This document shows, in pieces, positions 3,589-43,144 of a stretch of 46,843 nucleotides of DNA; the first letter of the stretch is position 1, and every line of letters starts with the position of its first letter. Source of the stretch: an uncultured Flavobacteriaceae bacterium. GTDB lineage: Bacteria > Bacteroidota > Bacteroidia > Flavobacteriales > Flavobacteriaceae. The notes under the pieces are model-generated. The model searched no databases and was not told the origin of the DNA. It saw only the letters and a list, made by a program, of their open reading frames with translations. The position numbers and the translations under genes are program-made. The stretch lies in NCBI GenBank assembly GCA_964490235.1, contig CAZBCH010000302.1, positions 1 through 46,843 on the forward strand, in the 5' to 3' direction.

Positions 3589-4737
3589 TCAATCAATTTG
3601 CAATAATTCTTGAATAGCTTCTTCAAAATCATCAAGAGTATACTTTCTAGACCAGATTGCGGCATTTTGCGACAGTTCTTGAAGCAACTCTGGCGCTCTT
3701 AAATATGCTGCTACTTGTGCATCAGCTGTGGAAAGATCATTGATTAAAATACCTCGTCCACAACGAGCATCTTCCCGCTGCGGCTGATTATTTGAACAAC
3801 CCAACATCCATGGCACACAGCTTACTGCACTTGCTATAGGCACACAACCCCAGAACATGGCTTCGGCAACAGCTTTAGGCCAGCCTTCACTCTTAGAAAG
3901 CAAAAAAGAGAAATGAGCATTTTTATAAGCTTTTGTTACTATGCTATTATCGACATTGCCGTGTAACCTAACCTTATCATGCAGATTGTACTCATCAATC
4001 TTCACGGCCATCTCATTTTTTAACGGTCCATCACCATAATAATCGATAGAAATATCTATACCATCTTTAGTAAGTGATTTAATAATCTCAAGTACTTCTA
4101 ACGGTCGTTTATTAGCTCCCATAGTTCCTACAAATACCGACTTAAAAGGTCCATTCCAGTCTCTTATAGAAAGAGCGGTTATTTGATTTCTTCTGTAGGT
4201 GGCTGTAAAAAAGGGCTTGACGTTTTTAGATTGATTTGGCCATTTTCCATAAGCTAATATTGAAATATTCTTAGTTAAGAATGTATTAGAAAGAATATTT
4301 TTTTGCCATCTATATGCAACAGGTTGTGCAGCATTAGGGTCAAAATTACCAGCATACTTGGCTGTTTTCTTTTTGGAAGGAAATAAGATTTGTGCGATAC
4401 TAGCCAGCAAGGCTAGGTTACCAGGACATCTTAAGTGTATGTGATCCGCGTTCGCGAAAGCGAAACACAAAACAATAAACTGATAAGGAATATTGCATAA
4501 AGACCAAAAAGCACTTGAATAATTATGAAACTCTAATCTTCTAAGCGATTTAACAGTAAAATCTTGTTTAATAAATGGTTGCGTTAATAATGACCTATTA
4601 TAATACGTCGGACATATAAAAGTAATATGATCAACATATTTCATCCATAAATCCATTTCTCTTACATATGGTGCATAAGCCTCTTTTTTACCCTTGCTTT
4701 TTAAAATAGGCGCATCTGAAATAATGAGAAGTCTCAT
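3589..4737 (-). CDS. GT4 glycosyltransferase
   Basis: SKSEGWPKAVAEAM (EX7E) motif. Confidence 0.85.
   Translation of the reverse strand: MRLLIISDAPILKSKGKKEAYAPYVREMDLWMKYVDHITFICPTYYNRSLLTQPFIKQDFTVKSLRRLEFHNYSSAFWSLCNIPYQFIVLCFAFANADHIHLRCPGNLALLASIAQILFPSKKKTAKYAGNFDPNAAQPVAYRWQKNILSNTFLTKNISILAYGKWPNQSKNVKPFFTATYRRNQITALSIRDWNGPFKSVFVGTMGANKRPLEVLEIIKSLTKDGIDISIDYYGDGPLKNEMAVKIDEYNLHDKVRLHGNVDNSIVTKAYKNAHFSFLLSKSEGWPKAVAEAMFWGCVPIASAVSCVPWMLGCSNNQPQREDARCGRGILINDLSTADAQVAAYLRAPELLQELSQNAAIWSRKYTLDDFEEAIQELLQID
4447..4462. repeat. 16-bp palindrome, 1 mismatch, intragenic (encodes AFANA)
   Basis: cgcgttcgcgaaagcg. Confidence 0.85.
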
Positions 4738-5282
4738 AAAATATAATCAGCTGAGTCGTTATCACTTATCTTAATTGCTGGAACACCTACCACGGTTGTT
4801 CCTGCCGCAACCTCTTTTACCACTAGACTATTTGCGCCTATCACAGCCTTATTACCTATTTTAGTTTTCCCAGCGACCGTGGCATTTGCACCGATATAAA
4901 CATGATCGCCAATTACTGGAACACCACGCTTATCACCTCTACCACTAACACCAATTGTAACTCCTTGAGAAATATTACAATTCTTTCCTATAACAGCATG
5001 TGCACTAATAATAATCCCTGAATGATGACCTATATAAAAGCCTTCTCCTATAGTTGCACTATATGGAATGGTTATTCCTGTTAGAATTTCAATTGCTTTT
5101 AATTTCAAAACGCCAATTCCTAATAATGGCCATTTGATTAATTTAGGTAAAGATGAGGTATAAATCCAATTGAAAAATCGATAGTGAAATAATGCCCAAA
5201 GACCTTGCTGTGTCAACAGCATAAGGAATGCAGACTTGCCACTATAATCTGTATATCTTTTGATATCTTTAGAAAACTTCAT
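4734..5282 (-). CDS. Serine-acetyltransferase-like hexapeptide-repeat O-acetyltransferase
   Basis: LbetaH repeats (IGEGFYIGH, IGKNCNISQGVTIG, IGDHVYIGANA) and GVPA. Confidence 0.85.
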   Translation of the reverse strand: MKFSKDIKRYTDYSGKSAFLMLLTQQGLWALFHYRFFNWIYTSSLPKLIKWPLLGIGVLKLKAIEILTGITIPYSATIGEGFYIGHHSGIIISAHAVIGKNCNISQGVTIGVSGRGDKRGVPVIGDHVYIGANATVAGKTKIGNKAVIGANSLVVKEVAAGTTVVGVPAIKISDNDSADYIL

Positions 5283-6283
5283 TAATTCGGTTTATTAAAT
5301 AACAAGCTTATTATTCCCACGGTTCTTCCTATTGCTTCGGTGAAAGCTTCTTTGTGCTCGCTAGTGGTAAAGATATTGAGAAATCTAATAGCTGTGAGTA
5401 AAAGAGTGATTTGGTACCATTTGATTTTATTTTTAAAAGTTGGTTGTAGATGTTTAACACGCCATACATACCAACCATTACGTACCACCATCTTACCATA
5501 ATTATACTGATTAGGCCTACCAGAGGCATCGTGATGGTGCTCTAATTGTGCTGCTGTATTCACGTACAAATCACCTATATGAGATAATCGCAAGGTAAAA
5601 TCTGCATCTTCATACAGACCGTAGCCTTCAAAATATTCAGAGAATCTATGCTCTTTTAAAACTGACAGAGGAAAACTGGAAACACCACCCATTAATTGAT
5701 CCACTTTATATATTTTACCAGATGGTGGCAAAAAACCTATGGACCTGCCATGTCCAAATTCGGGATAAACCGCTGGTGGTGTCGATTGTGCAAGCCCTAA
5801 TTTTCTTCTTAATTGGTACCTGCTGCTTTCCTTACGACGGTAGCCATCATAATAAAAGTGATTCAAATCCTGAGGTCGCTCTTCTTCTACTTTTTCCCAA
5901 AATACCTCGTTTGTAATATAACCACCTACTCCTAAAGCCTTAGGATAATAAACATAAGTAGAAATTAAATTCTCAAAATAATCTGAATTTAAAATCGTGT
6001 CATCATCTAAGAAAGCTACGATATCTATATCATCGCGCACTCTTGCAATTCCATAATTTCGCTGCTTTGTTAAACCGCGTTGTTCTGGTGCGACTTTGTG
6101 ATATTTGATGATAGGGTTTCCGCTTTCGCGAAAGCGTAATTCAGTACCATTATCTATCGACCCATCGATGATCAAGATTTCATCTGGCACTTTAGATTGA
6201 ATCATCACAGATTCTAGCAACCTGGTCAAAGGTTCTGGTCGCATGTAAGTGCAAACAATAAGACTTACTTTATATTTTTGCAT
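5282..6283 (-). CDS. GT2 glycosyltransferase
   Basis: IVCTYMR, IIDGS, FLDDD and YEDADF motifs. Confidence 0.9.
   Translation of the reverse strand: MQKYKVSLIVCTYMRPEPLTRLLESVMIQSKVPDEILIIDGSIDNGTELRFRESGNPIIKYHKVAPEQRGLTKQRNYGIARVRDDIDIVAFLDDDTILNSDYFENLISTYVYYPKALGVGGYITNEVFWEKVEEERPQDLNHFYYDGYRRKESSRYQLRRKLGLAQSTPPAVYPEFGHGRSIGFLPPSGKIYKVDQLMGGVSSFPLSVLKEHRFSEYFEGYGLYEDADFTLRLSHIGDLYVNTAAQLEHHHDASGRPNQYNYGKMVVRNGWYVWRVKHLQPTFKNKIKWYQITLLLTAIRFLNIFTTSEHKEAFTEAIGRTVGIISLLFNKPN
6121..6136. repeat. 16-bp palindrome, perfect, intragenic (encodes RFRES)
   Basis: cgctttcgcgaaagcg. Confidence 0.95.
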
Positions 6284-11209: not shown

Positions 11210-12613
11210 CTATTGAATTTTTTGAATACCTTCCCAAATACGCTCACTAGCTTTTTCAGGTGATTCTGGTTTGTTTATGATACCATACCACGATTTGCAA
11301 ACTGGTACTGGATCAACTACTTTTTCTAAAAGCTGTTGAATACCTGTACAAATATCTTCCTTTTTATGCGCCCAAACCACAGCATCGCTTGGCATGGTTC
11401 TAAAATGGACGTACTTGTAATTTTGTCCTATGTCTCTTATCCCTTTTTTTAGTTCCGGTTGCTCATAATTTGGGTAAATAGTAGGCTTATCGTGCGCCAC
11501 AAAATCAAACACCATACTAGAGCAAATATTGACTACCAGCTCGCAGTGATGACATGTGTTCACTAATAAAGCAAAGTCTTCTTTAGTAGGCATCACTTGG
11601 TTCCACTGCTCGCCCATAGGTTTCCATAAAGGCTTTATCGTGGAAATGATGTCATCATATTCATCCAGCACCTCACGATATCTATCAGAATGATCTACAG
11701 GAACCGGACGGAAAATAATCCCTATGTTATATCCACGATCATTTAGTTTTTGAACAGCCTCAGCGGTATCTTTAAGATACAAATGATCTAATGGTGAAGT
11801 AGTCGTATCATCACCAGAAAAACAGATGTAATCCTTTTTTTCATCTAGACCATGCTGTTCACAATAACGTTTCCGCGAAAGCAATATAGAATTATCATAA
11901 TGAGGCTCAAATTGAGGTGTCCCAGTAACAAAGATTTGTTCTTCTCTGGTTTTAGGATAATATTCTAGCAGTTGCGATTTCATCAATTCTGACCAGACAA
12001 AATAATAATCAGTTTCAATGGTGGTCATTCCTTTTGGAAGATTATCCCAACTGTAAATCCAGCAAGCGGTTTTAATTCCTAAATCTTGAGCCGCAAGTAT
12101 AGGTGCGATGGCTTGTGTCGCTCGTTGTGTGGTACAAAATACCAAATCTGGCCGGTGCTCTTCTAGCTGTGCTTTCACTTCTTGATACCGTTGTGTAGAA
12201 CGTTCGGCAGCATTCATTTGATCCATCAAGCGTTGCCAGCCTTCTGGTGTAGCGCTAAAGGTTTCATGAAACTTTACAAATGAACTTTTAGCGATATTCT
12301 TTAAGTTGTTCCACCTCAAAGGAAATCTATAGGTAGGATACACCTTATCCTTAGTCCGCTTTCGCGAAAGCGATAACTCCACTCTTTTACGAGCATGATT
12401 GATTACCGGTGTTTTAGGATGTATTCTAGTACTTTCTATTTTTAATTCTGGATAGCCCAATTCCTTCTCTAAGGAGAAAACAGTATTATTCCAGTAGGTA
12501 ATATCAAAGCCTTGTTGCTCACCAATTTCTTTAAATTGAGTAAACGCAAAATTGCGCAGTCCTACACCATCTGGGAAGAGGATGAATACTTTGGATTTGA
12601 TATTTTTAATCAT
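11210..12613 (-). CDS. GT-B-fold glycosyltransferase, candidate nonulosonate transferase
   Basis: YSWDNLPK and TGTPQFEPH motifs; adjacent to neuB/neuA. Substrate is inferred from context only. Confidence 0.6.
   Translation of the reverse strand: MIKNIKSKVFILFPDGVGLRNFAFTQFKEIGEQQGFDITYWNNTVFSLEKELGYPELKIESTRIHPKTPVINHARKRVELSLSRKRTKDKVYPTYRFPLRWNNLKNIAKSSFVKFHETFSATPEGWQRLMDQMNAAERSTQRYQEVKAQLEEHRPDLVFCTTQRATQAIAPILAAQDLGIKTACWIYSWDNLPKGMTTIETDYYFVWSELMKSQLLEYYPKTREEQIFVTGTPQFEPHYDNSILLSRKRYCEQHGLDEKKDYICFSGDDTTTSPLDHLYLKDTAEAVQKLNDRGYNIGIIFRPVPVDHSDRYREVLDEYDDIISTIKPLWKPMGEQWNQVMPTKEDFALLVNTCHHCELVVNICSSMVFDFVAHDKPTIYPNYEQPELKKGIRDIGQNYKYVHFRTMPSDAVVWAHKKEDICTGIQQLLEKVVDPVPVCKSWYGIINKPESPEKASERIWEGIQKIQ
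11868..11883. repeat. 16-bp palindrome, degenerate 13/16, intragenic (still encodes LSRKR)
   Basis: cgtttccgcgaaagca. Confidence 0.7.
12357..12372. repeat. 16-bp palindrome, perfect, intragenic (encodes LSRKR)
   Basis: cgctttcgcgaaagcg. Confidence 0.95.
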
Positions 12614-13725: not shown

Positions 13726-14881
13726 AACGGTTATTGTATTTTATAATAAATTCTGTAGCCTCACGTATGGCACCTTCGGCACTATTGTTTTGCAGGATAA
13801 CATCTGCATGATTTTTTATAGGTTGTGTAGCGTTTGCTGGAGTAAATGACCAACCTGCGGCACAAATATTTGCCATATCATTAACGTCATCACCTATGTA
13901 GGCGATATTGGAAAACGATAAATTTCTATCTGTTACAATTCTAGAAAGCAAACTGTATTTATCCTTAACACCTAAATAGACATCATTAATTTTTAGCTTT
14001 TTCATTCGGCTCGCGACGATTTGTGAATCTTCAGAAGTCATGACCATTACTTCTACTCCATACTGACGTAGGATTTCTAATCCCATGCCATCGCGCATGT
14101 CAAATTTTTTCATCATTTCGCCATCAGCTCCATAATAAATGCAACCATCAGTAAAAACGCCATCTACATCTAGAATAAGGTGAGTAATTTTTTCACTTTC
14201 TTTCTTTGATTTTAAACGAGCAGCTAGTAATTCTTCAACTATTTTCCAGTCTGTTAAGGTATCTATCTCTGTAAGACTATCCTCAGGCATAAGGACTGTT
14301 GCTATATTACCGCTTATTCTATTTTGGCTTTCGCGTAAAGCAGAATCAGTAGTTACATAACAAGCGCCATTTTCAATTAATAAACCTTCAAAATCCTGTC
14401 TGCGCGGTCTGTTGAAGATATCATAGTTTTTAGGCGTTCCATCGGCATGCCAAGTGAATCGATGCGTGTTTACTACAGTCAGTGCACTATCATAATTTTC
14501 ACCATCGGTAACTGCTTCTAAACAATTATTAATATCTACAGCGGTTGTAAATGGCGAAGTCGCTTGAAGTAAGCAGAATAAATCAAAGTTTGATTCGTGC
14601 TTGTTTACAAATTCCATTATAGCCATTTCTGTACTTGCAGTATCTGAAGCGCTGGCATCACTTCTTCTCACCGCATGAACCTTATCGGTCCAGTGGTATT
14701 CCTTTTCTATAAAATTGAGAATATCTTGATCATCTGTATAAACGTAAATTTCGTCTAGATGTGATGCAATAGCTTCACCCAGTGCCCAACAAAATAGCGG
14801 TCTTCCTAAAAGCTTCTTTTTGTTTTTACCAGGAATGCCTTTTGAACCTGCGCGTAATGGTATAAATCCTATGGATTTCAT
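13718..14881 (-). CDS. neuA: CMP-nonulosonate synthetase fused to a KdsC-type HAD phosphatase
   Basis: IPLRAGSKGIPGKN, LQATSP and EIDT motifs, then LDVDGVFTDG and YIGDDVND. Confidence 0.9.
   Translation of the reverse strand: MKSIGFIPLRAGSKGIPGKNKKKLLGRPLFCWALGEAIASHLDEIYVYTDDQDILNFIEKEYHWTDKVHAVRRSDASASDTASTEMAIMEFVNKHESNFDLFCLLQATSPFTTAVDINNCLEAVTDGENYDSALTVVNTHRFTWHADGTPKNYDIFNRPRRQDFEGLLIENGACYVTTDSALRESQNRISGNIATVLMPEDSLTEIDTLTDWKIVEELLAARLKSKKESEKITHLILDVDGVFTDGCIYYGADGEMMKKFDMRDGMGLEILRQYGVEVMVMTSEDSQIVASRMKKLKINDVYLGVKDKYSLLSRIVTDRNLSFSNIAYIGDDVNDMANICAAGWSFTPANATQPIKNHADVILQNNSAEGAIREATEFIIKYNNRYE
14327..14341. repeat. Degenerate 16-bp palindrome, intragenic (encodes ALRES)
   Basis: gctttcgcg[t]aaagc, the palindrome core with one extra base. 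Confidence 0.55.
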
Positions 14882-14961: not shown

Positions 14962-15843
14962 CTATTGATAAAATGGTGCCTTTAATGATCTAAATCTTTT
15001 TATGGAACTATTTTCAACCGGTTTTCTATAAGCCCACGTTTCTGGTAAGGAAATAAGAATCGTAAAAATTGCTTTTAGAAATCGCCACAAGTAGGTAAAG
15101 TCAGTAATGGCGTACTTTTTAAAATTATGAAACAACGCTCTAACTATGAAGTAAATAGGCTTTTTATAATATACTAAGTAAAACTTAACCACATTGACCA
15201 GCTGCTTTTCAAACCTAAAATAGTTTTTATTCTCTAATGTTCTTTTTACTACATCTTTACGATGATTCACCATAATAGAAAAATCATAAATGATATCATA
15301 TCCTAGATCGATAACCTCTAGAGAAAGAGCACTTTCTTCTCCATAAATATCCATCCAGACAGGAAACCCATCGGTTTGTTGATAAACCTCTTTCCTAATA
15401 GCAAAACCACATCCTACAAATTCACTGGCGTGAAAAGGAATGCCTTCTCGTGCAGTTTTCAATGCAACAAGATCGTTCTCAAATATACCTCGCACTTCTT
15501 GAAAAGCGATGATGGCTGTTTTTTCGCTTTCGCGAAAGCGAGACAATACTCGTTCTATAAAATGATCTCCTATAGGATGTGCATCGTCATCTAGCCCTAT
15601 CCAGATCATACCTGTTGCATGTTGATACAATTGATTTCTCGCTGGAGACGCCCCTAAATGGTTTTGTGATCTATACCATTTTACCCATTGAAAATGTGAA
15701 ACAATTTGTTCTGTATCAGGACAAGCATCTATAAAAACAAGAACTTCATGAATTTCTGGTTGAATAAGCTGTTTTAATTTATTTAAAGTGAAGCTTAATT
15801 CTTCAGGCCGGTGACGTGTCACGATAAGAAATGAAATTTTCAT
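14962..15843 (-). CDS. GT2 glycosyltransferase
   Basis: GASPARN, LDDDA and YGEE motifs. Confidence 0.85.
   Translation of the reverse strand: MKISFLIVTRHRPEELSFTLNKLKQLIQPEIHEVLVFIDACPDTEQIVSHFQWVKWYRSQNHLGASPARNQLYQHATGMIWIGLDDDAHPIGDHFIERVLSRFRESEKTAIIAFQEVRGIFENDLVALKTAREGIPFHASEFVGCGFAIRKEVYQQTDGFPVWMDIYGEESALSLEVIDLGYDIIYDFSIMVNHRKDVVKRTLENKNYFRFEKQLVNVVKFYLVYYKKPIYFIVRALFHNFKKYAITDFTYLWRFLKAIFTILISLPETWAYRKPVENSSIKRFRSLKAPFYQ
15525..15540. repeat. 16-bp palindrome, perfect, intragenic (encodes RFRES)
   Basis: cgctttcgcgaaagcg. Confidence 0.95.
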
Positions 15844-25909: not shown

Positions 25910-25925
25910 CGCTTTCGCGAAAGCG
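25910..25925. repeat. 16-bp palindrome, perfect, intergenic
   Basis: cgctttcgcgaaagcg. Confidence 0.95.
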
Positions 25926-25959
25926 AAACTCTTAAAACCTCTGTGCTCCTATCACACTA

Positions 25960-26805: not shown

Positions 26806-26818
26806 AGAATAATGGTTG

Positions 26819-27712
26819 CTATAACATGGCTCTTACCGAAGTAATGGCCTTGGTATTATAGTCTTTATATTTTTGATACTTCCATAATTTGAGTAAAACA
26901 GCATCTGTAAAATAACGGCCATTAATTACTTGAGAAATGTTCTTAGAAATCTTAAATAGGGAATGATCCCAAAACTGTTCTTCCATCAATTTTTTAAAAA
27001 GAACTGCATAAGATTCATTATATCTTTCATAGATAAGCAGCAATTCTTGTTGCCTTTTATCGCCACCAGCACCACTTTTATGATCTTCATGAATACGGTA
27101 TAGAGATAAAGGTCTTGAAAAGGAATGCAATGAAATACCATTCTTTTGTGCTCTTAAAAACCATTCCCAGTCAAAACCAAAATGAAGAGTCGCATCTAAA
27201 ACACCATTTTGTTCCCATACTTTTTTTGTCCAGAAGGAAGATGGCTGTATGATATAATCTATAGCCTCTAGATCTTGCTTTTTATGAGCAGTAACAACGT
27301 CACTTCCTCTAGTATCAAGAGCATCTTTATTAATCTCATGAAAATGAATGCAGTTCCCAAAATAAATCGCATCTCCATACTCTAGATAGAGCTGTGCTGC
27401 ATAATTTAAAACACCAGGCATTAACATATCATCGCTATTAAGCCACATAAGAAGATCTCCTGTCGCCTTATCAAAACCAGCATTTACAGCGGCTGCCTGA
27501 CCTCCATCTTTTCCAGAAAACCAGTAAGCAAGTCGTGACTCGTATTTTTTAATTATAGAAACAGATGCATCAGTACTACCACCATCCATAATAATGTATT
27601 CGATATTAGGATATTCCTGACCTAAGACAGAAAGTATCGTTTGCTCAAGAAACTGCCCTTGATTATAGGATGGAGTGATGATGGATATTTTGGGGCTGTT
27701 CTCCGAACTCAT
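26819..27712 (-). CDS. GT2 glycosyltransferase (WfgS-like)
   Basis: [20 protein letters not shown] and QPSSFW motifs. Confidence 0.9.
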
Positions 27713-27731
27713 GTTACTTATAAATTAAGTC

Positions 27732-28880
27732 TCAGGCTATAGTCATTAACTCCATAAAGTCTTTTGCAAAAGCCTTGACAAAAATACTATAATCTAACTC
27801 TACCTCATTTTGAAAAGCTAGATCATCTTTTAAAAGTATCTGAGCTAATTCTTGAGGTTCTTTGGGATTAAAGAAAGTTACATTTTGCTTTACTTGTTCT
27901 TTATGAACATCAATATTTGATAACACCAAAAATTTATCTTGCGCCTTTGCATCTTCTACAACAGTGCTCCATCCTTCAAATAAAGATGGTTGAATAACGG
28001 CTATTGAATTCTGCAAAATTAGTAATTGATCTTCACGAGGTAAAAAACCTAAAAATTTTACATTATTTTCAAGTTGATATTCTTTGACTAAACTTTTTAA
28101 ATTTTCAACATGACCAGAAGTTCTATAATCTGCTTCTTTACCAGAAAACGCTATTAATAATTCTGGATTAGTTTGAACGGCAATCTTAAGCGCTTCTATA
28201 ACTACAATATGGTTTTTATGAATCCAGAACTGATTAGGTGTAAAGAAGTAAGGCCTTGTTAAGCTATACTTAGATCGTACTTGTTCAAAATTTGTTTGAT
28301 TGATAGGCTGATGTGTTACCGCAAATTTCAGTACAAAGGTCTCGCATTTTGATTCAGGAAATAGATTTTTGAAATCTTTGCAGGCGTCATCACTGCTAAA
28401 CACTACAATATCTGCATTTTGAGCAATAAATTCATGCCTTTTGTATCGATTACTTATATCCTTTTTTGTGAATAATTCTGGTAAATGGATTTCCTGAAAA
28501 TCTGGAATCCATTCTACATGTTTAATATGAGAGCAATCCATTCCTTTAATAGGACTAGGATATAAAAAATCTACGTTCACAGATTTTAATTTTGAAGAAT
28601 TGAACAACTTGCGGTTCAACAGCTTTTTAGAAACTCTATTACTGATGGTTTTAAATTTACTTAAACTAAAATTCAGACTCTTAAACTTTAAATAAGGATA
28701 ATTAGTAATGTCTTTGAGTTCTCTAAATCGCTCTTCACTTTCAGAAAAAACAGTAATCTCTGGCTTTACTTTATCATCTAAAGTTTGAAGCGCATGGATC
28801 AAGTTTAATATGTAATAAGTACCACCTATCCAGTTCTCATTATAGGAATAGATTAAACCTAACTTTATTTTTTGAGCCAT
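27732..28880 (-). CDS. GT4 glycosyltransferase
   Basis: NQFWIHKNH and PSLFEGWSTVVED motifs. Confidence 0.88.
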   Translation of the reverse strand: MAQKIKLGLIYSYNENWIGGTYYILNLIHALQTLDDKVKPEITVFSESEERFRELKDITNYPYLKFKSLNFSLSKFKTISNRVSKKLLNRKLFNSSKLKSVNVDFLYPSPIKGMDCSHIKHVEWIPDFQEIHLPELFTKKDISNRYKRHEFIAQNADIVVFSSDDACKDFKNLFPESKCETFVLKFAVTHQPINQTNFEQVRSKYSLTRPYFFTPNQFWIHKNHIVVIEALKIAVQTNPELLIAFSGKEADYRTSGHVENLKSLVKEYQLENNVKFLGFLPREDQLLILQNSIAVIQPSLFEGWSTVVEDAKAQDKFLVLSNIDVHKEQVKQNVTFFNPKEPQELAQILLKDDLAFQNEVELDYSIFVKAFAKDFMELMTIA

Positions 28881-29752
28881 TCCGCATATTTACGTAAACC
28901 TTGAGGTAAGGAAACTTGTGGTTGAAAACCTAAATCGGTTATTTTATTTATTTGAGCTACCCAATTAATAGGGTCTCCTATTCTATTGGTTCCTTTGAAC
29001 TTTATCGTTCCTGTATAATTTAATTCTTTGTAAAAGGTAGTTACCACTTCTTTAATAGAAGTTTCTAATCCTGTTCCTAAATTAAGTGATTCTCCATTAA
29101 AAGAATGTTCAGTGGCAATTATTTTCAATGCATGGACTAAATCAGATATATATATAAAATCTCTCGTTTCATTTCCCGTACCGAATAACTCTACTTCATT
29201 TTTATCTATTGATTTTTTATATAAATCCCAAAATAATTGCTTCTTTAAACCAGGACCGTAAGCAGAGAAAACACGAACTGAGCAAGTATTTAAATTATAT
29301 AACTTATGAAATTCTTTACAAACATTCTCTGCCATGTCTTTATGGAAACCATACGGTGAAACAGGATTTAGAAGTTGAGATTCTACCACTGGTAAGGATG
29401 CCGGATTACCATAAACGGCAGCGCTACTTAAGTTTATGAATTTACATGATGCGTTTAATAGTCTTATGCCATCTAATATTTTAAAAACGTTCAAAACGTT
29501 GAGATTAAAATCTCTTAAAGGTTGTTTTACAGAATCTGGAACGCTAGCTGCACCAGAACAGTTGATACACAAATCATAGTTATGATTTTCAAAACATGAT
29601 TTATAATCAGCATTTACAGTGTCGATTAAGAAGTAATTTGCATTATCATAGTCGGTAACGACATCACATTCAAAAACTTGAGCAAATGAAGAAAAATAGT
29701 CCACACAATGTGATCCTATAAAACCTTTTGAGCCTATTATTAATACGTTCAT
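28865..29752 (-). CDS. NAD-dependent epimerase/dehydratase
   Basis: GSKGFIG, SSAAVYG and YGFHK (YxxxK) motifs. Confidence 0.9.
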   Translation of the reverse strand: MNVLIIGSKGFIGSHCVDYFSSFAQVFECDVVTDYDNANYFLIDTVNADYKSCFENHNYDLCINCSGAASVPDSVKQPLRDFNLNVLNVFKILDGIRLLNASCKFINLSSAAVYGNPASLPVVESQLLNPVSPYGFHKDMAENVCKEFHKLYNLNTCSVRVFSAYGPGLKKQLFWDLYKKSIDKNEVELFGTGNETRDFIYISDLVHALKIIATEHSFNGESLNLGTGLETSIKEVVTTFYKELNYTGTIKFKGTNRIGDPINWVAQINKITDLGFQPQVSLPQGLRKYAEWLKK

Positions 29753-30606
29753 TATTTTAAAACTATATAACTATAAATGCGTCCTGGTACTTTCTTTTCA
29801 TTTAAAGGACGGAACTTAAACAACATTTTATAAATGTCAAATATGAATCCAGTAGTCCCTATAAACCCTAATTTATCCTTAAGCTTTCTTCTTATACGCT
29901 GTTCTTCTTCTTGTACTAGGTTATCAAGTGATTCCTTTGTTTCTGGAAAATAATTTAAAACACTATCGTAATGCTTTAATTCTTTGATAATCCTTCCTCC
30001 TGCTAATTCTATAGCATTTCTATATTGTCCACTTGTAAAAGCATTCTCGCCACCATAAAACTTATGTAATGGATGTGATTTTAAAAACCACTTTTTGTCA
30101 TTAGCATCAAATATAACATGATCTCTTACAGTAAGAAGTAAGCCACCATGTTTAAGTACTCGCAAACACTCTCCTATAAACTTATTCAAGTCATTAGAAT
30201 GATGCACAGCTTGTCTTACATAAACAATGTCAAAGCTGTTATCTTTAAATTTGATGTCTTCAGCAAATTCTTCATAAATTTCAATATTATTAAGGTTATG
30301 TTTTGCTTTCATTATCTTGATCGCTCCAGCACCTACGGTGTCACTAGCATCTGGTTCTACAGCGCTTACTTGATAGCCTTTTAAGGCAAAGTTTATGGAG
30401 CTTATTCCATTACCGCAACCTATATCAAGAATACGTGTTGCATCAGGTGCGTATTCTTTAATGATCGCAAGTGTTTCAATGAACTCATGGCTATTGCCAA
30501 AGTTTTTTACATTAAAATCTAGATCTTCATGAAAATAGGCTTTCTCCACGAGGTCTTGATACTCAGGTTTAGTTCTTATAAAAGTAATGGTTTCTTCCCA
30601 AGTCAT
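29752..30606 (-). CDS. Class I SAM-dependent methyltransferase
   Basis: ILDIGCGNG, SFDIV and RVLKHGG motifs. Confidence 0.88.
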   Translation of the reverse strand: MTWEETITFIRTKPEYQDLVEKAYFHEDLDFNVKNFGNSHEFIETLAIIKEYAPDATRILDIGCGNGISSINFALKGYQVSAVEPDASDTVGAGAIKIMKAKHNLNNIEIYEEFAEDIKFKDNSFDIVYVRQAVHHSNDLNKFIGECLRVLKHGGLLLTVRDHVIFDANDKKWFLKSHPLHKFYGGENAFTSGQYRNAIELAGGRIIKELKHYDSVLNYFPETKESLDNLVQEEEQRIRRKLKDKLGFIGTTGFIFDIYKMLFKFRPLNEKKVPGRIYSYIVLK

Positions 30607-30608
30607 GT

Positions 30609-31235
30609 TTATGATTTTAACTCTTTAACTATTTGAGCAGGATTACCAGCAACCACAGTGAATGGTGCAACATCTTTTGTAACAACGCTACCAGATGCCA
30701 CTACTGCACCTTTACCTATGGTTACACCTTTTAAAATGATACAATTAAATCCTATCCAACTTTTATCTTCTACGACTATAGGTTTAGATTTTACGTGAGA
30801 CCAATCTTTAAATTTGCCTATTTGGTTTGAATCATAACCTTCTTTCCAGTCTTTCACATCATTCTTACGCTCTTCCCAAACTACGGAGTGCGCATCAGTA
30901 TCCATGAAAGTACAACCCCAAGAAATTAATACATCATTTCCAATAGTAATGCGCGCGGCCGATATAAATCTACTACTTCCTATAAAAGTGTTGTCACCTA
31001 TACTAATAAAGCCACTTGAGCTCTCAGAAATATAACTACCACCTATTAAACTATTCTTTCCTATTTGAACAAATAATGGGTTTTGAAATAGAATAGATCT
31101 AGAAATTGACAGATTATCTAAACTAGAATTTTCTCCTACTTGAAGCCATCCTTTTTCTGCATAGACTTCATAGCGGCTCTTTTTTGGTGCTTTTTTCTTG
31201 AATTTATTAAAAATACGTTGAAGTATTTTATTCAT
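30609..31235 (-). CDS. Hexapeptide-repeat acyltransferase
   Basis: [15 protein letters not shown] and VAGNPA motifs. Confidence 0.88.
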
Positions 31236-31241
31236 TATACA

Positions 31242-32186
31242 TTATTTAATGATTCGTTTAAATTGATTTATTAAACGATTTTTAATTAAAAAGAGTTTTG
31301 ATTTATTTGAGATGCTTTTAGCCTCAAACATTTGTGATCTAAAGCTTTTTTTGAATATATTTTTAACATCTTCACGCACAATGATAGGTTCGCTCTGGAC
31401 ATTTATTAACTCATCTGAAACAGATATTTTACTAAAAAAATCCTCAATCTCACAATGTTGTCCAGAATTATCAAAACCAATGTTTTGAATCAATGATAAA
31501 TTAGGAAATAAAAACAATTTATTTTTAAGAAACATAGAAGTATGAAATCTGATTGCCCATGAATCATTATTTCCTTTCACTTGATTTTCTAACATCTCAT
31601 AATAAGGGTAATTTCCAAAATTTATTTTTTTCATGAGCTGACGTTTTTTAATATCCGCTAACAAAAATTTTCCATCAAAATTAACTTCATTCCAGCGATC
31701 TAACCAAGTTCCAAAACTCCAAGAACTTGAAATCGGTAAAAAATATGTTACTGGTTTTATTTTTTCTAAGGTTGGAAATTTATAACCTGAAACACCAAAA
31801 ACTTTAGTATCGTTCGCATACAATTCAAGAGACTCATTCATGAATCTTAAAAAGTACTTACCAGTTACGATATCGTCCTCTAACACTATTACTTTACCAA
31901 ATTTATTAATTACTTTTGTCACACCATCAATTATAGAATTTGCTAAACCTTTATTTTTATCCTCATATTTGATAGTAATTTCTTTACACCAATTCTGCTC
32001 CATCAACACGCTCCTAGTAGACTTTACATTATCGAGGTCTTTAGAAGATACATCATTTTTAGGTCCGTCTGCAAAAACAAACAATTTGGAGTGCTGAGCT
32101 AGTTCGTTTTTTGACAACGCCATTAAAGTGCGCCTTGTATGATCAGGTCTATTGTATACAAATAAAACTATGGGCGCTAAATTCAT
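31242..32186 (-). CDS. GT-A-fold glycosyltransferase; start moved to MNLAP
   Basis: LFVYNRP, VIVLEDD and NIGFD motifs. A start at 32186 avoids overlap with the upstream gene. Confidence 0.82.
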   Translation of the reverse strand: MNLAPIVLFVYNRPDHTRRTLMALSKNELAQHSKLFVFADGPKNDVSSKDLDNVKSTRSVLMEQNWCKEITIKYEDKNKGLANSIIDGVTKVINKFGKVIVLEDDIVTGKYFLRFMNESLELYANDTKVFGVSGYKFPTLEKIKPVTYFLPISSSWSFGTWLDRWNEVNFDGKFLLADIKKRQLMKKINFGNYPYYEMLENQVKGNNDSWAIRFHTSMFLKNKLFLFPNLSLIQNIGFDNSGQHCEIEDFFSKISVSDELINVQSEPIIVREDVKNIFKKSFRSQMFEAKSISNKSKLFLIKNRLINQFKRIIK

Positions 32187-32187
32187 A

Positions 32188-32931
32188 TTAAGGACGATTA
32201 TCTTTAAAAAACAAAGTATTAAATGTCTTTGCTGCGAAAGAATAGTCTTGGTTTTTAAGGAATTTATACATTTCACTACTATTTATAAAATTCTCTATCG
32301 ATTGCTTCTTCAAATCTTCTACCAAGAGTAAACCAGGCCTATATTTCTCCCAATCATTTGATTTCAAAACATCTAGATCAAGTCCTTCAACATCTATAGT
32401 CATAAAATCTATAAGTGTTCCTGACTTAATATATTTATCTAAAATAGAGCTTAATGGATAAGTCCTTATTTTTCTTTGTTCTATAATTTTATAAATACTT
32501 AGACCACCTTTCTTTTGAGCTTCTTCTTTAGAAAATGTATTTAATGCAGGCTCATTAAACATATAATAAATTAGTTCCTGCTCTTCAAGTGAAACTCCTG
32601 CTTCAATATTTATATCATTAGGTCTTTGCGTATTGAATTTATCCATTATACCTGGTAACGGATCTACATTAATACCACTCCAGCCTTTCTCATAAAATGA
32701 AAATGTATTGGAAAAACGAGTTGGGTGATGAGCGCCAATATCGATATAAAAACCTTTTTCTTTATTATTTAAAAATCTTTTAATTAATAGATCTTCACCT
32801 TCTTGCGCATAAGAAATATTAGCAAATTCCATTGATCTCAATTCAGTTTTCAGAAATAGATTGTAATAAAACTTTTTGAGTTTGATCGGAGTAATTTTAT
32901 TCAAAAGATATTTTAAAAATTTATGTATCAT
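32188..32931 (-). CDS. FkbM-family methyltransferase
   Basis: SYAQEGED, DIGAHHP and IDVEG motifs. Confidence 0.88.
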   Translation of the reverse strand: MIHKFLKYLLNKITPIKLKKFYYNLFLKTELRSMEFANISYAQEGEDLLIKRFLNNKEKGFYIDIGAHHPTRFSNTFSFYEKGWSGINVDPLPGIMDKFNTQRPNDINIEAGVSLEEQELIYYMFNEPALNTFSKEEAQKKGGLSIYKIIEQRKIRTYPLSSILDKYIKSGTLIDFMTIDVEGLDLDVLKSNDWEKYRPGLLLVEDLKKQSIENFINSSEMYKFLKNQDYSFAAKTFNTLFFKDNRP

Positions 32932-33683
32932 TTTGAATAACCATATTTAAAAAAGTATTCCTCAGCATGTTTAAAAAAATAAACTAACTCTTCTTCACTC
33001 ATGTCTTTATCCCAGCGTCTTGTAGTTTTAAAAAGCCCTTGATTTATTTGCCAATTACGATTTTTCATATGACGTTCATGGGAATGGCTCTCTAAAGTAT
33101 CTATTTCACTTTTAGTTATTTTACCTCTATCGTAAAATGTTTTCACTTCATTTCCTTGTTTCGATAAAATTTTATTATCAAAATTAATATTGATAAAATC
33201 AAAGATAAATTTCATAGTATCCATTGGATTGGCAACTAAGTCTTCCAATTTAATAAACTCGACATTATCGTTGTTTATAAATTCATAAGCTTTTTCGTTA
33301 GAGCTAATCCATCTACTCACACCTTCCTCAAAATTACCTGTTCGTTCTTTTATTGAGCAAGCAACATCTCTCCCATCTCTAACCATCACAATGATTTTAG
33401 CATCTGGATATGTATTAATGATAAAATCAATCTTTTCTACATGTTTAGGAGTTTTTTCTACTAAAGCTTTCTTATTTTCAAGTTTTGCAAGCTTTGTTTT
33501 CTCTCTAAAAAAGTTTTTTACTTCTCTCTTTTTTTTGAAAAAAATACCAGTCTCATTTGGGATTACTTGAATAGACTCGTGATTATCAAGTAATGATAAC
33601 ATAATAGATGTACCACTATGACCACAACCAACTATAAATATCTTTGTTACTGTATTATTCTGACTTTTAAAAAAATTCAACAT
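32928..33683 (-). CDS. PAPS-dependent sulfotransferase
   Basis: 5'-PSB GCGHSGTS, EKTP and 3'-PB RDGRDVACS motifs. Confidence 0.88.
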   Translation of the reverse strand: MLNFFKSQNNTVTKIFIVGCGHSGTSIMLSLLDNHESIQVIPNETGIFFKKKREVKNFFREKTKLAKLENKKALVEKTPKHVEKIDFIINTYPDAKIIVMVRDGRDVACSIKERTGNFEEGVSRWISSNEKAYEFINNDNVEFIKLEDLVANPMDTMKFIFDFININFDNKILSKQGNEVKTFYDRGKITKSEIDTLESHSHERHMKNRNWQINQGLFKTTRRWDKDMSEEELVYFFKHAEEYFFKYGYSK

Positions 33684-33695
33684 AATTAAATTTAT

Positions 33696-34970
33696 TTATA
33701 ATTTGTCCCATCCATATTCAATTAATACACCTTTATTATTATCTGGAAGGACACCAGTTCCATAAAAATCAGACGCAACTACATCTAGATAACCAGCATC
33801 GTTAATCCAATCGGCTATTTCATTTTGAATTTCAGCGAATAAATTGAATTTATATCTACCTTCTTTTAATGGTAATTTTGGGATTCTACATACCAATGTG
33901 CCTTTCTCTTGAATATCAATTTCTGTATTTAAGATATTTGTTGGACAGTTAAACAATAAAGTGTCATAATTATCTCTTACTCCAACTGATATCCTACACT
34001 TTTTGATTGATATAGCTTTTCTAGAAATATAATCTAAATGTATTTCTATAGGCGAGCCTGATTGGACTGTGTTACCTGATAATTTATAATTTAAATCCAT
34101 GATTTTATATCCAACAAATTGAAAAACGCCGTTACCTTTGCGTTCCAAATTTGTCAAATTAGATGACTGGATTTTTGAGCTACTTTTTAAATACTCTGCA
34201 ATCACTTCATCTACAGTGCCTTCTATAGCGATCCCTCCATTGTTGAGCATTATAGCACTGGTACACAAATTCTGTATACTAGCCATATTATGACTTACAA
34301 AAAGAACTGTTCTACCGCTGGTATTTGAAATATCTTGCATCTTCCCTATGGCCTTTTTTTGAAACTCTACATCACCCACGGCAAGTACTTCATCTACCAC
34401 AAGAATATCTGGCTCTAGAAAAGCAGCAACTGCAAATCCTAGACGTACTCGCATACCACTAGAATAACGCTTTACAGGTGTATCAATGTACATCTGGCAA
34501 CCTGAGAATTCTATAATCTCATCAATCTTACAAGAGATCTCTGTCTTATTCATTCCTAAAATTGCACCGTTTAAGTAAATATTTTCTCTACCGGTAAGTT
34601 CTGGATGCATTCCTGTTCCTACTTCTAGTAAACTGGCTATACGGCCTTTAGTTTTGATACTTCCTGTGGTAGGACTCGTTACTCTAGAAAGTATTTTTAA
34701 TAGTGTAGATTTACCAGCGCCGTTTTTACCTATGATACCTAGGATCTCTCCGCGCTTTACTTCAAAGTTGATATCTTGTAACGCCCATACATAATCTGAG
34801 CTTGCCGTCGCACTGCGATCATTTACAGCACCTATTTGTAAGTAAGGATCTTCTTTACCTCGTATTTTATGCCAGAACCTATTTAAATCATGGGTTAAAG
34901 TTCCTGTACCTACTAATCCCAGACGGTATTGCTTTGAGATATTGTCTACTTTTAAAATTACATCGTCCAT
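33696..34970 (-). CDS. wzt: Polysaccharide ABC transporter ATPase with C-terminal Wzt_C domain
   Basis: GKNGAGKST, YSSGM and DEVLAVGD motifs plus a long C-terminal extension. Confidence 0.93.
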   Translation of the reverse strand: MDDVILKVDNISKQYRLGLVGTGTLTHDLNRFWHKIRGKEDPYLQIGAVNDRSATASSDYVWALQDINFEVKRGEILGIIGKNGAGKSTLLKILSRVTSPTTGSIKTKGRIASLLEVGTGMHPELTGRENIYLNGAILGMNKTEISCKIDEIIEFSGCQMYIDTPVKRYSSGMRVRLGFAVAAFLEPDILVVDEVLAVGDVEFQKKAIGKMQDISNTSGRTVLFVSHNMASIQNLCTSAIMLNNGGIAIEGTVDEVIAEYLKSSSKIQSSNLTNLERKGNGVFQFVGYKIMDLNYKLSGNTVQSGSPIEIHLDYISRKAISIKKCRISVGVRDNYDTLLFNCPTNILNTEIDIQEKGTLVCRIPKLPLKEGRYKFNLFAEIQNEIADWINDAGYLDVVASDFYGTGVLPDNNKGVLIEYGWDKL

Positions 34971-35830
34971 TATACGGTATCTATAAAAGTTTTTTCAGTG
35001 CGGTTAAAGAAAACTAGTCCTATAAAAAATAACACTATACCTAATCCTAGTCCTATATAAATTCCAATCCAATTCATTTCTAAACTATTGAACCATATGC
35101 TGCGGTAGCTCTCTATAACATAGGCGATAGGATTCCATTCTACTGCCCAGTAATAATCTTTAAGTTTATCTCGAGCTGCATCCATAGAATACATCACAGC
35201 GCTGAGATACATTAATAGATTTAAACCAAAACCTACAAGTAATGATAAGTCGCGATATTTTGTTGTAAAGGCAGATAGTATCATACCTATTCCCATCGCA
35301 ATTAGAATAATATTTAAGAGTATCACAAATATAAATGGTAAGAAAACAGATGGTCTTACTTCCATACCATGGTATGCATAATAGATATAGAATACTAATA
35401 AAATCAACAGCTGAATAGAAAACTTAAGTAAGCCTGATATCACTTTAGACGCAGGAGAAATAAATCTAGGAAAGTACACTTTTCCAAAAATCCCTGCATT
35501 ACTTTTAAAAGAATTACTTGTTGCATTTAAAGATTCCTTAAAATAGGACCAAAGCGTAAGTCCAGTTAGGTTGAATAAAAAATTAGGAATTGCTCCATTA
35601 TCAATTCCAGCGACCTCGTTAAAAATTAAAGTAAATACCACACTGGTAAATAAGGGCTGGATGATAAACCATAACGGTCCTAAAATGGTCTGTTTATAAA
35701 CCGTAACAATATCGCGCTTTATAAAAAGAACTAACAGGTCCCTGTACCTCCAAATCTCTTTAAGATTTAAGTCTATGAACTTACCTTTAGGTTTAATCTC
35801 GTAGAGCCACTCCTCCGTATTACTACTCAT
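34970..35830 (-). CDS. wzm: Polysaccharide ABC transporter permease
   Basis: YKQTILGPLW, KVYFPR and NP motifs with multiple TM segments. Confidence 0.93.
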   Translation of the reverse strand: MSSNTEEWLYEIKPKGKFIDLNLKEIWRYRDLLVLFIKRDIVTVYKQTILGPLWFIIQPLFTSVVFTLIFNEVAGIDNGAIPNFLFNLTGLTLWSYFKESLNATSNSFKSNAGIFGKVYFPRFISPASKVISGLLKFSIQLLILLVFYIYYAYHGMEVRPSVFLPFIFVILLNIILIAMGIGMILSAFTTKYRDLSLLVGFGLNLLMYLSAVMYSMDAARDKLKDYYWAVEWNPIAYVIESYRSIWFNSLEMNWIGIYIGLGLGIVLFFIGLVFFNRTEKTFIDTV

Positions 35831-36065
35831 ATTGATTTATTTGCTCTTTGTAGCAAATGTTACTATAATTAAATTAATTCAAAAATTAGATTGAAGTTTT
35901 ATCAATTAATCAGACAAAAATAATGTTTTAAACTTCAACGAAGTTACTTTTTGAACTTCTCATAAATATCATATTACAGTTATTTTATTATTGCTACATG
36001 CAAGCTATCAAATACTAAAAATTTTAATTTGTATGAGGATTGCTTTCTTACTTACTATTGATTTT

Positions 36066-37031
36066 TTAAAATTTTTTTTTAAGCTTTAATTTTGCGTTCT
36101 TCAATTTTGTCGCTATCCAATATATATGTCTCTTATAGGTTTTTGAAACTGGAGTTTTAACTTTAGAATCGTCAATGCACAAGGATATAAAATCTAGTAA
36201 GTGATTTAGATCAAAAAACTCTGGTGTTTGCGCATTTTTAAATATTGGTTGTTGTATAATCTCCATAAACTTTTTATCGTTTGAGTCTATCTCTAAAATG
36301 GTATTGATCAAATCCTCAGTATTTGAAAAATCATCGTAATTGAGAAACCTTTTTGGGTTAAACACCCCATTAACCGTTGGGTCACCAAAATAGATAGGTA
36401 TGGAATCACTTAAAAGGGCATCGGTTATTTTTTCTGTACAATAACCTTTTTCTTTCTCGTTTTCAAAGGCAAACACAAACTTATGCTTTTTACAAAAACT
36501 ATTTTTATCTTTTACAGGACCACCTACATTATTCTCAAACCTTCCACCAGAATTTACTTTTTTAACTTTATTCAATTCTCTAAAGAAGTGATTGCGCACC
36601 AGTCCCAAGCCATTAGAAACAACGGTACAACAAAATTGCGTTTTAGAATCTAAAATATCCTGAGCCTCCTGTTGATTATATATTTTTTCAAGGTTAGGTA
36701 GTTTATTTGCTTCAATAACTCTTAGCACATAATAAGGAAGGTAATATTGTTTATGAGTAGCTAGCTTCTCAAAAGTGATAGAGTAGTCACAAGCATCAAA
36801 ATTAGATTTCCGATTTTCTCCAGTATAAAACAATTTAGCACAAGAATACTTTGCATGCCCATTGCCAAAGCAGGAATAAATTAAAAAATCAGGAGTGTCA
36901 GAAATTTCTAAATCATATCGCTTACTTAATAATTGATGAAAAATGTTATTTTGATTTTGAAAATCAGGCCACATATCAGCATAATTAATTCTTAGCTTTT
37001 CCTTGTATGGTTTAGAATCTCTGGCACACAT
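36066..37031 (-). CDS. GT10 alpha-1,3/1,4-fucosyltransferase-like protein
   Basis: YTGEN, VVSN and KFVFAFEN...GYCTEKITDA...IPIYFG signature. Confidence 0.88.
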   Translation of the reverse strand: MCARDSKPYKEKLRINYADMWPDFQNQNNIFHQLLSKRYDLEISDTPDFLIYSCFGNGHAKYSCAKLFYTGENRKSNFDACDYSITFEKLATHKQYYLPYYVLRVIEANKLPNLEKIYNQQEAQDILDSKTQFCCTVVSNGLGLVRNHFFRELNKVKKVNSGGRFENNVGGPVKDKNSFCKKHKFVFAFENEKEKGYCTEKITDALLSDSIPIYFGDPTVNGVFNPKRFLNYDDFSNTEDLINTILEIDSNDKKFMEIIQQPIFKNAQTPEFFDLNHLLDFISLCIDDSKVKTPVSKTYKRHIYWIATKLKNAKLKLKKKF

Positions 37032-37106
37032 TAATTAAATCTTTGAATATTTATTATTTCAATTTCATTCTCATAATCATGATGTATTGAATATAGGTAT
37101 ATGGAA

Positions 37107-37122
37107 CGCTTTCGCGAAAGCG
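37107..37122. repeat. 16-bp palindrome, perfect, 6 nt downstream of the wzc stop
   Basis: cgctttcgcgaaagcg. Confidence 0.95.
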
Positions 37123-41364: not shown

Positions 41365-41367
41365 AAT

Positions 41368-42181: not shown

Positions 42182-42209
42182 AACTAATAATTTAAAAATT
42201 AATATGGAC

Positions 42210-42620: not shown

Positions 42621-42698
42621 TATCACACTCATTACGAGTAGCTAAGCTAATTATTGATAAAAATGAAACTAACATCGTAATCGATTTAACAATCAATA

Positions 42699-42764
42699 CT
42701 TAATAGCTGCTTAATAGATACTTAATAGATAGTGTATGGATAGTGTATGAGAGCTGCATACAAG
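42699..42764 (+). repeat. 11-bp phased degenerate tandem array
   Basis: cttaatagctg cttaatagata cttaatagata gtgtatggata gtgtatgagag ctgcatacaag. Confidence 0.75.
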
Positions 42765-42817
42765 AAAACAGAGAAAAAGAAGTAAAATATAATCAAACGC
42801 CACTTAAACAAATACAA

Positions 42818-43069
42818 ATGATGAGATTATCAAATACAGAAAGTAAGTACAAGAGAAGCCTGAAAAAAGCGCCATTGTTCATCAGTGCAAAGGATGTAGA
42901 ACGACTTCTAGATTGTTCTTCATCAACTGCCTACAGAAATTTAAAAGCAGCAAAAGCAGATCATATGAGATCTAACGGCAAAGTGACCCATAAAGAATTT
43001 GCAGCCCACTTAGAGATCCCTTTAGAAGAACTCTATTACCGGTTAGATTATCACAAACCTACAGGTTAG
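42818..43069 (+). CDS. Small basic HTH-like DNA-binding protein (~83 aa)
   Basis: ISAKDVERLLDCSSSTAYRNLK is HTH-like, with a second helix pair VTHKEFAAHLEIPLEEL. The ATG follows an A-rich leader; the track's GTG at 42743 lies inside the repeats. Confidence 0.7.
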   Translation: MMRLSNTESKYKRSLKKAPLFISAKDVERLLDCSSSTAYRNLKAAKADHMRSNGKVTHKEFAAHLEIPLEELYYRLDYHKPTG

Positions 43070-43128
43070 GATTTTTCCACAAGTAGTGGTGGTATCACGG
43101 TTGCTTTCATGATGATGAAGGAAGATTC

Positions 43129-43144
43129 CGCTTTCGCGAAAGCG
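43129..43144. repeat. 16-bp palindrome, perfect, between the convergent HTH gene and cysN
   Basis: cgctttcgcgaaagcg. Confidence 0.95.

Follow-up and report, generated by a model that had tools for sequence, protein, structure and literature searches.

Why would one 16-bp palindrome recur along a stretch of flavobacterial DNA, at times inside genes and in more than one reading frame? The question is raised by 46,843 nucleotides from an uncultured Flavobacteriaceae bacterium (contig CAZBCH010000302.1 of assembly GCA_964490235.1), here termed the window, which was scanned for the palindrome CGCTTTCGCGAAAGCG. Nine matches at up to three mismatches were obtained, as compared to a mean of 0.04 in the 100 shuffled sequences that set the chance level. 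An earlier note on this DNA, prepared from the letters alone, had taken the repeats for a genome-wide mark similar in kind to highly iterated palindrome 1 (HIP1) of cyanobacteria and to DNA-uptake sequences (DUS), and not for in-frame insertions of the Rickettsia palindromic element (RPE) type. As considered below, there is about an even chance that the palindrome, together with its flanks, is a DUS-like signal.

Abundance, anatomy and conservation of the palindrome

The source of the window is a genome (G000; 3.0 Mb, 34.7% GC, 84.5% complete) assigned to Nonlabens by its best matches among named loci, in which sites at zero, one, two and three mismatches number 619, 143, 28 and 22, respectively, as compared to 0, 0, 0 and 1 in order-4 Markov simulations; at five mismatches, the count (282) is near the background of approximately 256. 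The genome-wide count against a Markov background that the earlier note had proposed bears out its statement that such density is beyond chance. With our open reading frame (ORF) caller, 329 of the exact copies (53%) were assigned to coding sequence, 287 to intergenic DNA and three were partial, although only some 10% of the genome is intergenic. Coding copies are read as AFAKA (203), RFRES (74) or LSRKR (52), with 76 of the coding calls, lying within the first tenth of an ORF, possibly reflecting miscalled starts.

Examination of the sequences surrounding the copies revealed a soft consensus on each side, reading outward RRA-HHA-HHA-HHA and remaining G-poor to about position +18, which adds approximately 3.6 bits per side and extends the site to some 40 bp. 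This consensus is not the product of codon wobble, being found in each of the three coding frames as well as in 548 flanks of intergenic copies. The left and right flanks are not mutually complementary in G000 and are coupled only through weak composition effects; since no flank haplotype families exist beyond a modest excess, the copies were not pasted together with their surroundings. The assertion that flanks are not conserved thus stands for single copies but not for the copies in aggregate. No target duplication, tag or longer repeat unit was found around the G000 copies, and no transposase tracks the motif (the earlier note had likewise seen no target-site duplication or transposase); nor are the copies the end of a longer insertion sequence or repetitive extragenic palindrome (REP) element. 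A derivation from a REP-like hairpin was also considered, with no full copy of that hairpin being found in G000.

Within the 16 bp, the two halves go together, with lone half-sites being rare in G000 and the outermost base being the altered one in 95 of the 143 one-mismatch variants. Outside the motif, neither CGCG (observed/expected, 0.73) nor TCGCGA (0.94) is enriched. In the Dokdonia genome G268, the second half-site may repeatedly take another form, ending AAATGTGA (L260-L265), which resembles a CRP half-site but faces outward, and copies in G248 often consist of the 14-bp core only. Because the dyad is strict and the footprint extended, a dimeric protein acting on duplex DNA is the probable reader of the site.

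The sites are also evenly spaced, as seen in short contigs and in stretches of at most 260 kb. Only 10 of 398 gaps in G000 are shorter than 1 kb, as compared to about 105 expected at random, with a median gap of 3.3 kb and a short-range exclusion zone of 1-1.5 kb between sites. The coefficient of variation of the gaps is 0.43 in G000, 0.38 in G437 and 0.53 in G401; it reaches 0.66 in G268 and, from no more than 13 gaps, 0.76 in G248. Every one of 156 contigs of at least 7 kb has a site. The two longest site-free stretches of the genome are both low-GC polysaccharide clusters, the longer being that found in the window at 25.9-37.1 kb; the recent acquisition of such cassettes is judged from their GC content.

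Comparison with related genomes revealed that sites are retained. In 274 kb aligned with G437 at 79% identity, 67 of 82 G000 sites are shared, 12 are absent and three are near matches, as compared to the 30-50% or so that neutral decay would keep according to our binomial estimate. Likewise, 14 of 16 sites are shared with G404 (84% identity, 49 kb), with one site differing by seven substitutions and no indel. Relative to G401, coding site differences are length-neutral, often fall on peptides that are already similar and are in some cases purely synonymous. When the motif-less genome G115 was considered (0.8 of 2.95 Mb covered, 307 orthologues), 20 of 42 coding sites lay near gaps, as compared to 7.5% of 2,475 controls. 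At the 22 ungapped sites, a median of 10 of the 16 bases differs from the motif (controls, 12), and amino acid identity at the site core is 35%, as compared to 66% in controls. Judging from these alignments, the sites lie in permissive protein positions. Most gains and losses were not polarised. Some lineage-specific sites replace unrelated sequence, with small net indels, such that writing of a site in one step is possible. In-frame insertion that lengthens the protein, the hallmark of RPEs, is not the pattern found, given the 22 ungapped sites and the length-neutral gains relative to G401 and G404. The description of a genome-wide mark of the HIP1 or DUS kind, distinct from RPE-type insertion, is supported, with the motif being enriched throughout the genome, conserved and gained in coding sequence mostly without change of length.

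To the count across Flavobacteriaceae that had likewise been proposed, the answer is that the motif is rich in few lineages. All 39 genomes of the genus Nonlabens hold 175-738 exact copies. Among 401 genomes of the family, most were without a match, 42 had at least one, and the rich ones comprised only three g1 genomes, G268 (549 exact copies) and G248, of genus g248 (154 exact copies and 409 of the 14-mer). A scan with the 10-bp core gave the same set of rich genomes and a weak dispersed enrichment in g61 (27 and 51) and g28 (42). The genome of a named Leeuwenhoekiella locus contains 227 copies of the 12-bp core, and the 23 genomes of that genus range from 4 to 227 (controls, 0-2). A search for dialects that covered 140 kb of G028 and 120 kb of G346 brought to light nothing but degenerate forms of the same motif; a different repeat, present some 94 times in G028:C1 1-140000 (L339-L345), is probably a CRISPR array.

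In several motif-poor genomes, the few copies are clustered in shared islands. One such island (G099:C3 32-119 kb; L251-L253, L256-L259, L348) is common to motif-poor genera, has close to the site density of Nonlabens and carries copies that have decayed in some hosts. This multi-gene island likely came from a motif-rich donor. As for the motif-rich lineages themselves, an incomplete elongation factor G tree splits them, the ParB proteins of G248 and G268 pair these two genomes at 82% identity, and trees of neighbouring genes disagree on the grouping. AddB of the same two genomes is only 41% identical, as compared to the 82% of ParB, and both share a site at one comEC codon and near parB (L354, L355, L208, L211). 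Taken with the likeness in ParB, these shared sites make exchange between motif-sharing genera possible.

Fifty viral stretches, among them IMG/VR contigs L177, L178, L182, L183, L201-L203 and L206, also carry the site, with up to six copies inside the ORFs of one 37-kb contig; these ORFs presumably encode Mu-type terminase, portal and tail proteins. Nonlabens phage P12024S (35.7 kb), which we take to be lytic, holds no site at up to three mismatches. Sites are thus scarce in low-GC cassettes and absent from P12024S, as fits the scarcity of DUS in recently acquired DNA.

A candidate DNA-uptake signal and competing explanations

Were the palindrome an uptake signal, a two-fold symmetric receptor of a pilus-free flavobacterial competence machine is predicted to bind it in duplex DNA. 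Tagged fragments would then enter the cell and recombine more often, and the combined bias in uptake and recombination would fix new sites wherever the protein tolerates them. We infer both that these bacteria are competent and that uptake gains from the site. An exclusion zone of 1-1.5 kb would be expected, as the cost of a 16-bp site is repaid only if the nearest other site is more than a fragment length away, and the graded copy number of 4-227 within a single genus suits a drive of varying strength. The fuller proposal, namely, that this is the first uptake sequence of Bacteroidota, a 16-bp palindromic signal of some 40 bp in duplex DNA that is read by a pilus-free machine, that serves as an exchange tag in at least four genera, that tags the comEA-like gene itself and whose 4-227 gradient captures a drive rising or fading, is tentative, being put at somewhat less than an even chance.

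Genes that such a machine would employ are at hand. ComEC is present in all five genomes examined, including G000, and a ComEA-type helix-hairpin-helix (HhH) protein, scoring over the TIGR00426 cut-off, was found in 34 of 35 (29/30 and 5/5 in two sets). A DUF5689 lipoprotein with an upstream receptor-like gene is present in 26 of 26 genomes, including G000 (G000:C360). According to PMC8459023, transformation of Riemerella anatipestifer depends on DUF5689, on its outer-membrane neighbour and on an HhH protein, the last being a possible counterpart of the comEA-like gene product; R. columbina, as described in PMC7965970, prefers its own DNA.

Moreover, the comEA-like gene carries a site with at most one mismatch at one and the same codon in 10 of the 11 genomes with at least 100 copies, representing four genera (six Nonlabens genomes, G268, G248, G443 and G462), and in none of 23 other genomes, of which the closest, G099, is two mismatches away and the rest are 5-13 away. 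For comparison, ordinary coding sites of Dokdonia and g248 are found at the same place in G000 in only 2 of 17 cases. The comEA-like gene of G099 also contains the half-site variant mentioned above for Dokdonia. The shared site is a pointer to a role in uptake, not proof, since the codon is pre-adapted, the carriers, being kin, do not count as independent cases, and comparison brought out no residues specific to a receptor.

Several observations weigh against an uptake signal. Motif-less genomes possess the competence genes just as motif-rich ones do, and no comEA-like gene was found in G000, at 85% completeness. G455, with 105 copies, is without the shared comEA-like site, and the xFRExx context that pre-adapts this codon is common in motif-less genomes; G099 is two mismatches away. 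No residue or signature specific to a receptor emerged from comparisons of the uptake genes; the DUF5689 lipoprotein is mosaic within Nonlabens, its receptor-like neighbour has no more than a single weak column that sets motif-rich genomes apart, and rates for the comEA-like gene (1.32-1.66) are only mildly raised relative to a neighbouring gene (1.09-1.58), with motif-less G160 at 1.48. Even spacing fits any function needing one site per few kilobases, and the density of coding sites, flat at 1.1-1.5 per 10 kb regardless of distance to intergenic DNA, counts against a simple fill-in model. Known DUS and uptake signal sequences (USS) are, furthermore, 9-12-nt non-palindromes, with that of Neisseria being read by a pilin. 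Finally, the literature consulted describes no competence or uptake assay for these genera.

Profile searches by family for a transposase, methyltransferase or extra ParB that tracks the motif returned none, nor does the motif follow any family examined among those that the earlier note had proposed to correlate with its abundance (methyltransferases, competence proteins, HUH and GIY-YIG nucleases). A dedicated ParB paralogue was not seen, with one ParB_N match each in G000, G014, G268 and G248. HUH transposases (Y1_Tnp) are absent from G248 and marginal in G268, and GIY-YIG genes occur in 12 of 12 genomes, motif-rich or not. Among methyltransferases, C5 enzymes (PF00145) were not found in G000, G268 or G248, and N4/N6 enzymes (PF01555) score over the cut-off in four of six rich genomes and in motif-less ones as well; these two families define the negative, with Dam-type PF02086 and type I/III families falling outside the search. 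HHH_3 proteins include no family that tracks the motif, AddB (PDDEXK_1) does not differ in size between motif-rich and motif-poor genomes and its identities do not group the rich ones, and HU/IHF is double in motif-rich and motif-less genomes alike. Terminase PF03237 was found in none of five genomes, other terminase families not having been searched. Of the roles first suggested, uptake is favoured by the comEA-like site and its contrast with ordinary sites, methylation is weakened by the lack of enrichment of CGCG and TCGCGA and of a tracking C5 or N4/N6 enzyme, and nucleoid and recombination roles are possible.

A site of chromosome architecture is unlikely, although the most probable of the rivals. 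Here, a dimeric nucleoid protein bound every 3-4 kb would anchor loops, load a topoisomerase or helicase, or wrap some 40 bp in hosts without canonical SMC. The strictness of the dyad, whose halves hardly ever stand alone in G000, the even spacing with few long gaps and the extended footprint all suit this explanation, as does the finding that SMC_N matches in G401, G416, G268, G248 and G115 are RecN-, RecF- or ABC-sized frames only, with no SMC-sized ATPase among them. The same can be said of the contrast between phage contigs, likely prophages, that carry sites within ORFs and P12024S, with none. HIP1 periodicity has been interpreted in these terms (PMC5861425). By contrast, G115 is without SMC and motif-less, neither ParB nor HU/IHF number sets motif-rich genomes apart, a gradient of 4-227 within one genus is not what an essential scaffold would lead one to expect, and the site common to comEA-like genes is left unexplained.

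Less probable still is a Chi-like repair site, at which the palindrome would halt AddAB-type resection from both sides and a G/T-rich 5' flank, with T every third base, would nucleate RecA. Indeed, the incoming flank is G/T-rich, C-poor and of period three, resembling DNA preferred by RecA, and Chi in Escherichia coli has a density similar to that of the palindrome. P12024S, devoid of sites, brings recombination proteins of its own, ERF and YqaJ, and the homology to a relative ends exactly at the 37107 copy in the window. Still, AddB shows neither the size difference nor the grouping expected, a 16-bp dyad that needs both halves seems ill-suited to reading in a single-strand tunnel, and synteny breakpoints hold no significant excess of shared sites (21/131 vs 16/138.5, p=0.38). 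A more general role as a recombination joint meets the same non-significant test, with 37107 being the one suggestive case.

An enzyme-written or selfish mark, in which the palindrome would be put into DNA by some nuclease or recombinase or by biased repair, in the manner of REP or small dispersed repeats, or via the methyl-directed ratchet of Elhai (PMC4390886), with target immunity generating the spacing, is improbable. Intermediates at two to five mismatches are rare, unrelated sequence has given way in a number of gains, with small net indels, and almost half of the coding sites compared with G115 lie near gaps, all as such writing would predict; what is missing are flank haplotype families, a target duplication or longer element, and a transposase, GIY-YIG nuclease or methyltransferase that follows the motif, and the sites are conserved, looking decayed in the islands of motif-poor hosts.

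A function in RNA or peptide (terminator, RNA hairpin or AFAKA/RFRES/LSRKR peptide) is largely refuted and so highly improbable: although the motif can form a 6-bp hairpin (-4.3 kcal/mol) in single-stranded DNA and a stop codon is found no more than 40 bp from many of the intergenic copies, the motif makes use of all three frames and of either strand, the flanks downstream are rich in A whichever strand is read, without U-tracts, intergenic copies occupy all gene-orientation classes, divergent included, folding of the 16-mer gives a z-score of -0.94 with no Rfam match, and the peptides are almost always in the motif's own codons (231 of 244 for AFAKA), as compared to three AFEKA and two AFSKA in all.

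Copies in the window and their surroundings

All six perfect copies and both one-mismatch copies listed in the earlier note are present where it had placed them, and all three translations occur in real ORFs (Table 1). Of the two weaker copies, that at 11868 was upheld, with three mismatches, and that at 14327 proved to be a variant. The view that the palindrome is written into protein-coding genes is correct for the coding copies, whose hosts are glycosyltransferases, one cytidylyltransferase and one ORF without a Pfam match, but overstated the coding share, as three of the six perfect copies lie between ORFs. Given the nearby exact copy, that at 11868 is possibly a decaying redundant site.

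Table 1. Palindrome copies in the window, the site-free stretch between them and their surroundings.
Feature	Position	Surroundings	Frame or remark
One-mismatch copy	4447..4462	In group-1 glycosyltransferase gene 3589-4737 (-)	AFANA
Exact copy	6121..6136	In GT2 gene 5282-6283 (-)	RFRES
Three-mismatch copy	11868..11883	In the same 467-aa ORF as exact copy 12357, 489 bp from it	LSRKR
Exact copy	12357..12372	In 467-aa ORF 11210-12613 (-), no Pfam match at 1e-6	LSRKR
1-nt insertion variant (5 ungapped mismatches)	14327..14342	In cytidylyltransferase/HAD gene 13718-14881 (-)	ALRES
Exact copy	15525..15540	In GT2 gene 14962-15843 (-)	RFRES
One-mismatch copy	20264..20279	In GT2 gene 19925-20704 (-)	AFAKA
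Exact copy	25910..25925	Intergenic, between two GT2 genes (25863 / 25960)	
Site-free stretch, 11.2 kb	25926..37106	Polysaccharide genes, GC 31.8%	Longest G000 stretch without a site at up to two mismatches
Exact copy	37107..37122	Intergenic, 6 bp past the stop of an 824-aa wzc-like gene	
Exact copy	43129..43144	Intergenic, 17 bp past the stop of a 424-aa GTP_EFTU-domain gene	

Positions 2512-39603 of the window comprise a large surface-polysaccharide cluster, in which many GT2 and GT4 genes are accompanied by those for a wzc-like kinase, a Wzt-type ABC ATPase and a GT10 fucosyltransferase. Among sequencing runs, contigs only and no RNA data set were listed. The contig of a relative (run X3 record 8, X4 record 16) matches the wzc-like side of this cluster, with the homology beginning exactly at the 37107 palindrome; beyond it, the same contig holds 926 unlike bases. 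The 37107 copy may bound the variable polysaccharide cassette, a single case to be set beside the non-significant genome-wide breakpoint test. The GTP_EFTU-domain gene next to the 43129 copy is, judging by its neighbour, presumably cysN-like. In G000 at large, the motif coincides with 21 of the 792 ends of contigs, about five times our rough expectation, which is probably an assembly or hairpin artefact.

Relation to known systems

Literature searches, as the earlier note had advised, for the exact 16-mer, for palindromes in Dokdonia and Nonlabens (judged by title or opening of the abstract), for HIP in Bacteroidetes and for uptake sequences in Flavobacteriaceae returned no description of the motif, with most subscription papers and all supplements lying outside their reach. 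What the present analysis adds are the flanks of period 3, the gradient across Leeuwenhoekiella, the contrast among phages and the site that comEA-like genes have in common. To our knowledge, Neisseriaceae and Pasteurellaceae are the only groups in which uptake of DNA by its sequence is established; it has been suggested for HIP1. A long palindromic uptake signal in marine Flavobacteriaceae, if true, would add a new type of receptor and offer a ready tool for transforming degraders of algal polysaccharides. The palindrome also serves as a tracer of gene flow, in that islands in motif-poor genera still carry it, and the long site, sharp exclusion distance and 4-227 gradient make the question of drive versus function, as posed for DUS and HIP1, directly testable. 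Should the site instead be a nucleoid mark, it would point to how chromosomes are organised in SMC-less bacteria.

USS, like the palindrome, have soft flanks. The likeness to DUS and USS, as these are described in PMC2397512 and PMC2817400, further extends to copies that number in the hundreds, are near-perfect and lie both within genes and between them, to a bias in reading frame, to placement where the protein is permissive, to gains from divergent sequence, to rarity in DNA of recent acquisition, to kilobase-scale spacing and to the presence of competence genes. For neisserial DUS in particular, PMC2397512 describes placement at permissive positions, gains that diverge too far to be the work of point mutation, lack of DUS in newly acquired genes and spacing that corresponds to the size of conversion tracts. 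The differences lie in the 16-bp perfect dyad, as opposed to an asymmetric word of 9-12 nt, in the 1-1.5 kb exclusion, the lack of close inverted terminator pairs and the period-3 flanks, and in a Bacteroidota host whose Riemerella-type uptake genes have no counterpart in the well-known machines (PMC8459023).

With HIP1 (GCGATCGC) and alternate HIPs, the palindrome shares being GC-rich, hyper-abundant, conserved in and between ORFs, present across genera and non-randomly spaced (PMC4390886 and PMC5861425); HIP1 has, moreover, been tied to transformation (PMC13756078). Unlike HIP1, the palindrome is twice as long and much sparser, its inner CGCG and TCGCGA are not enriched elsewhere, and no cognate methyltransferase was found in the C5 and N4/N6 families searched. 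It shows short-range exclusion, whereas HIP1 has a periodicity of 10-90 kb, a scale to be compared with palindrome data from stretches of at most 260 kb.

The resemblance to other repeats is more limited. REPs and bacterial interspersed mosaic elements (BIME), with their REP-associated tyrosine transposases (RAYT), and RPEs are short palindromes in hundreds of copies, enriched between genes and in some cases found within them. The palindrome differs from the REP/RAYT system in its single, evenly spaced copies, in being without a tag, clusters or tracking HUH transposase and in its 53% coding share, and from RPEs in that its coding gains are mostly length-neutral rather than in-frame insertions. 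parS and Noc-binding sites (NBS) are also 16-bp dyads bound by dimers, and the density of Chi is similar. The palindrome, however, has 10-100 times more copies than parS, NBS, matS or SlmA-binding sites (SBS), is found genome-wide and is accompanied by no extra ParB; Chi, for its part, is short, asymmetric and polarised, whereas the palindrome is symmetric over 16 bp and, as such, cannot be polarised. On present tests, then, the palindrome resembles DUS and HIP in its working and is a member of neither.

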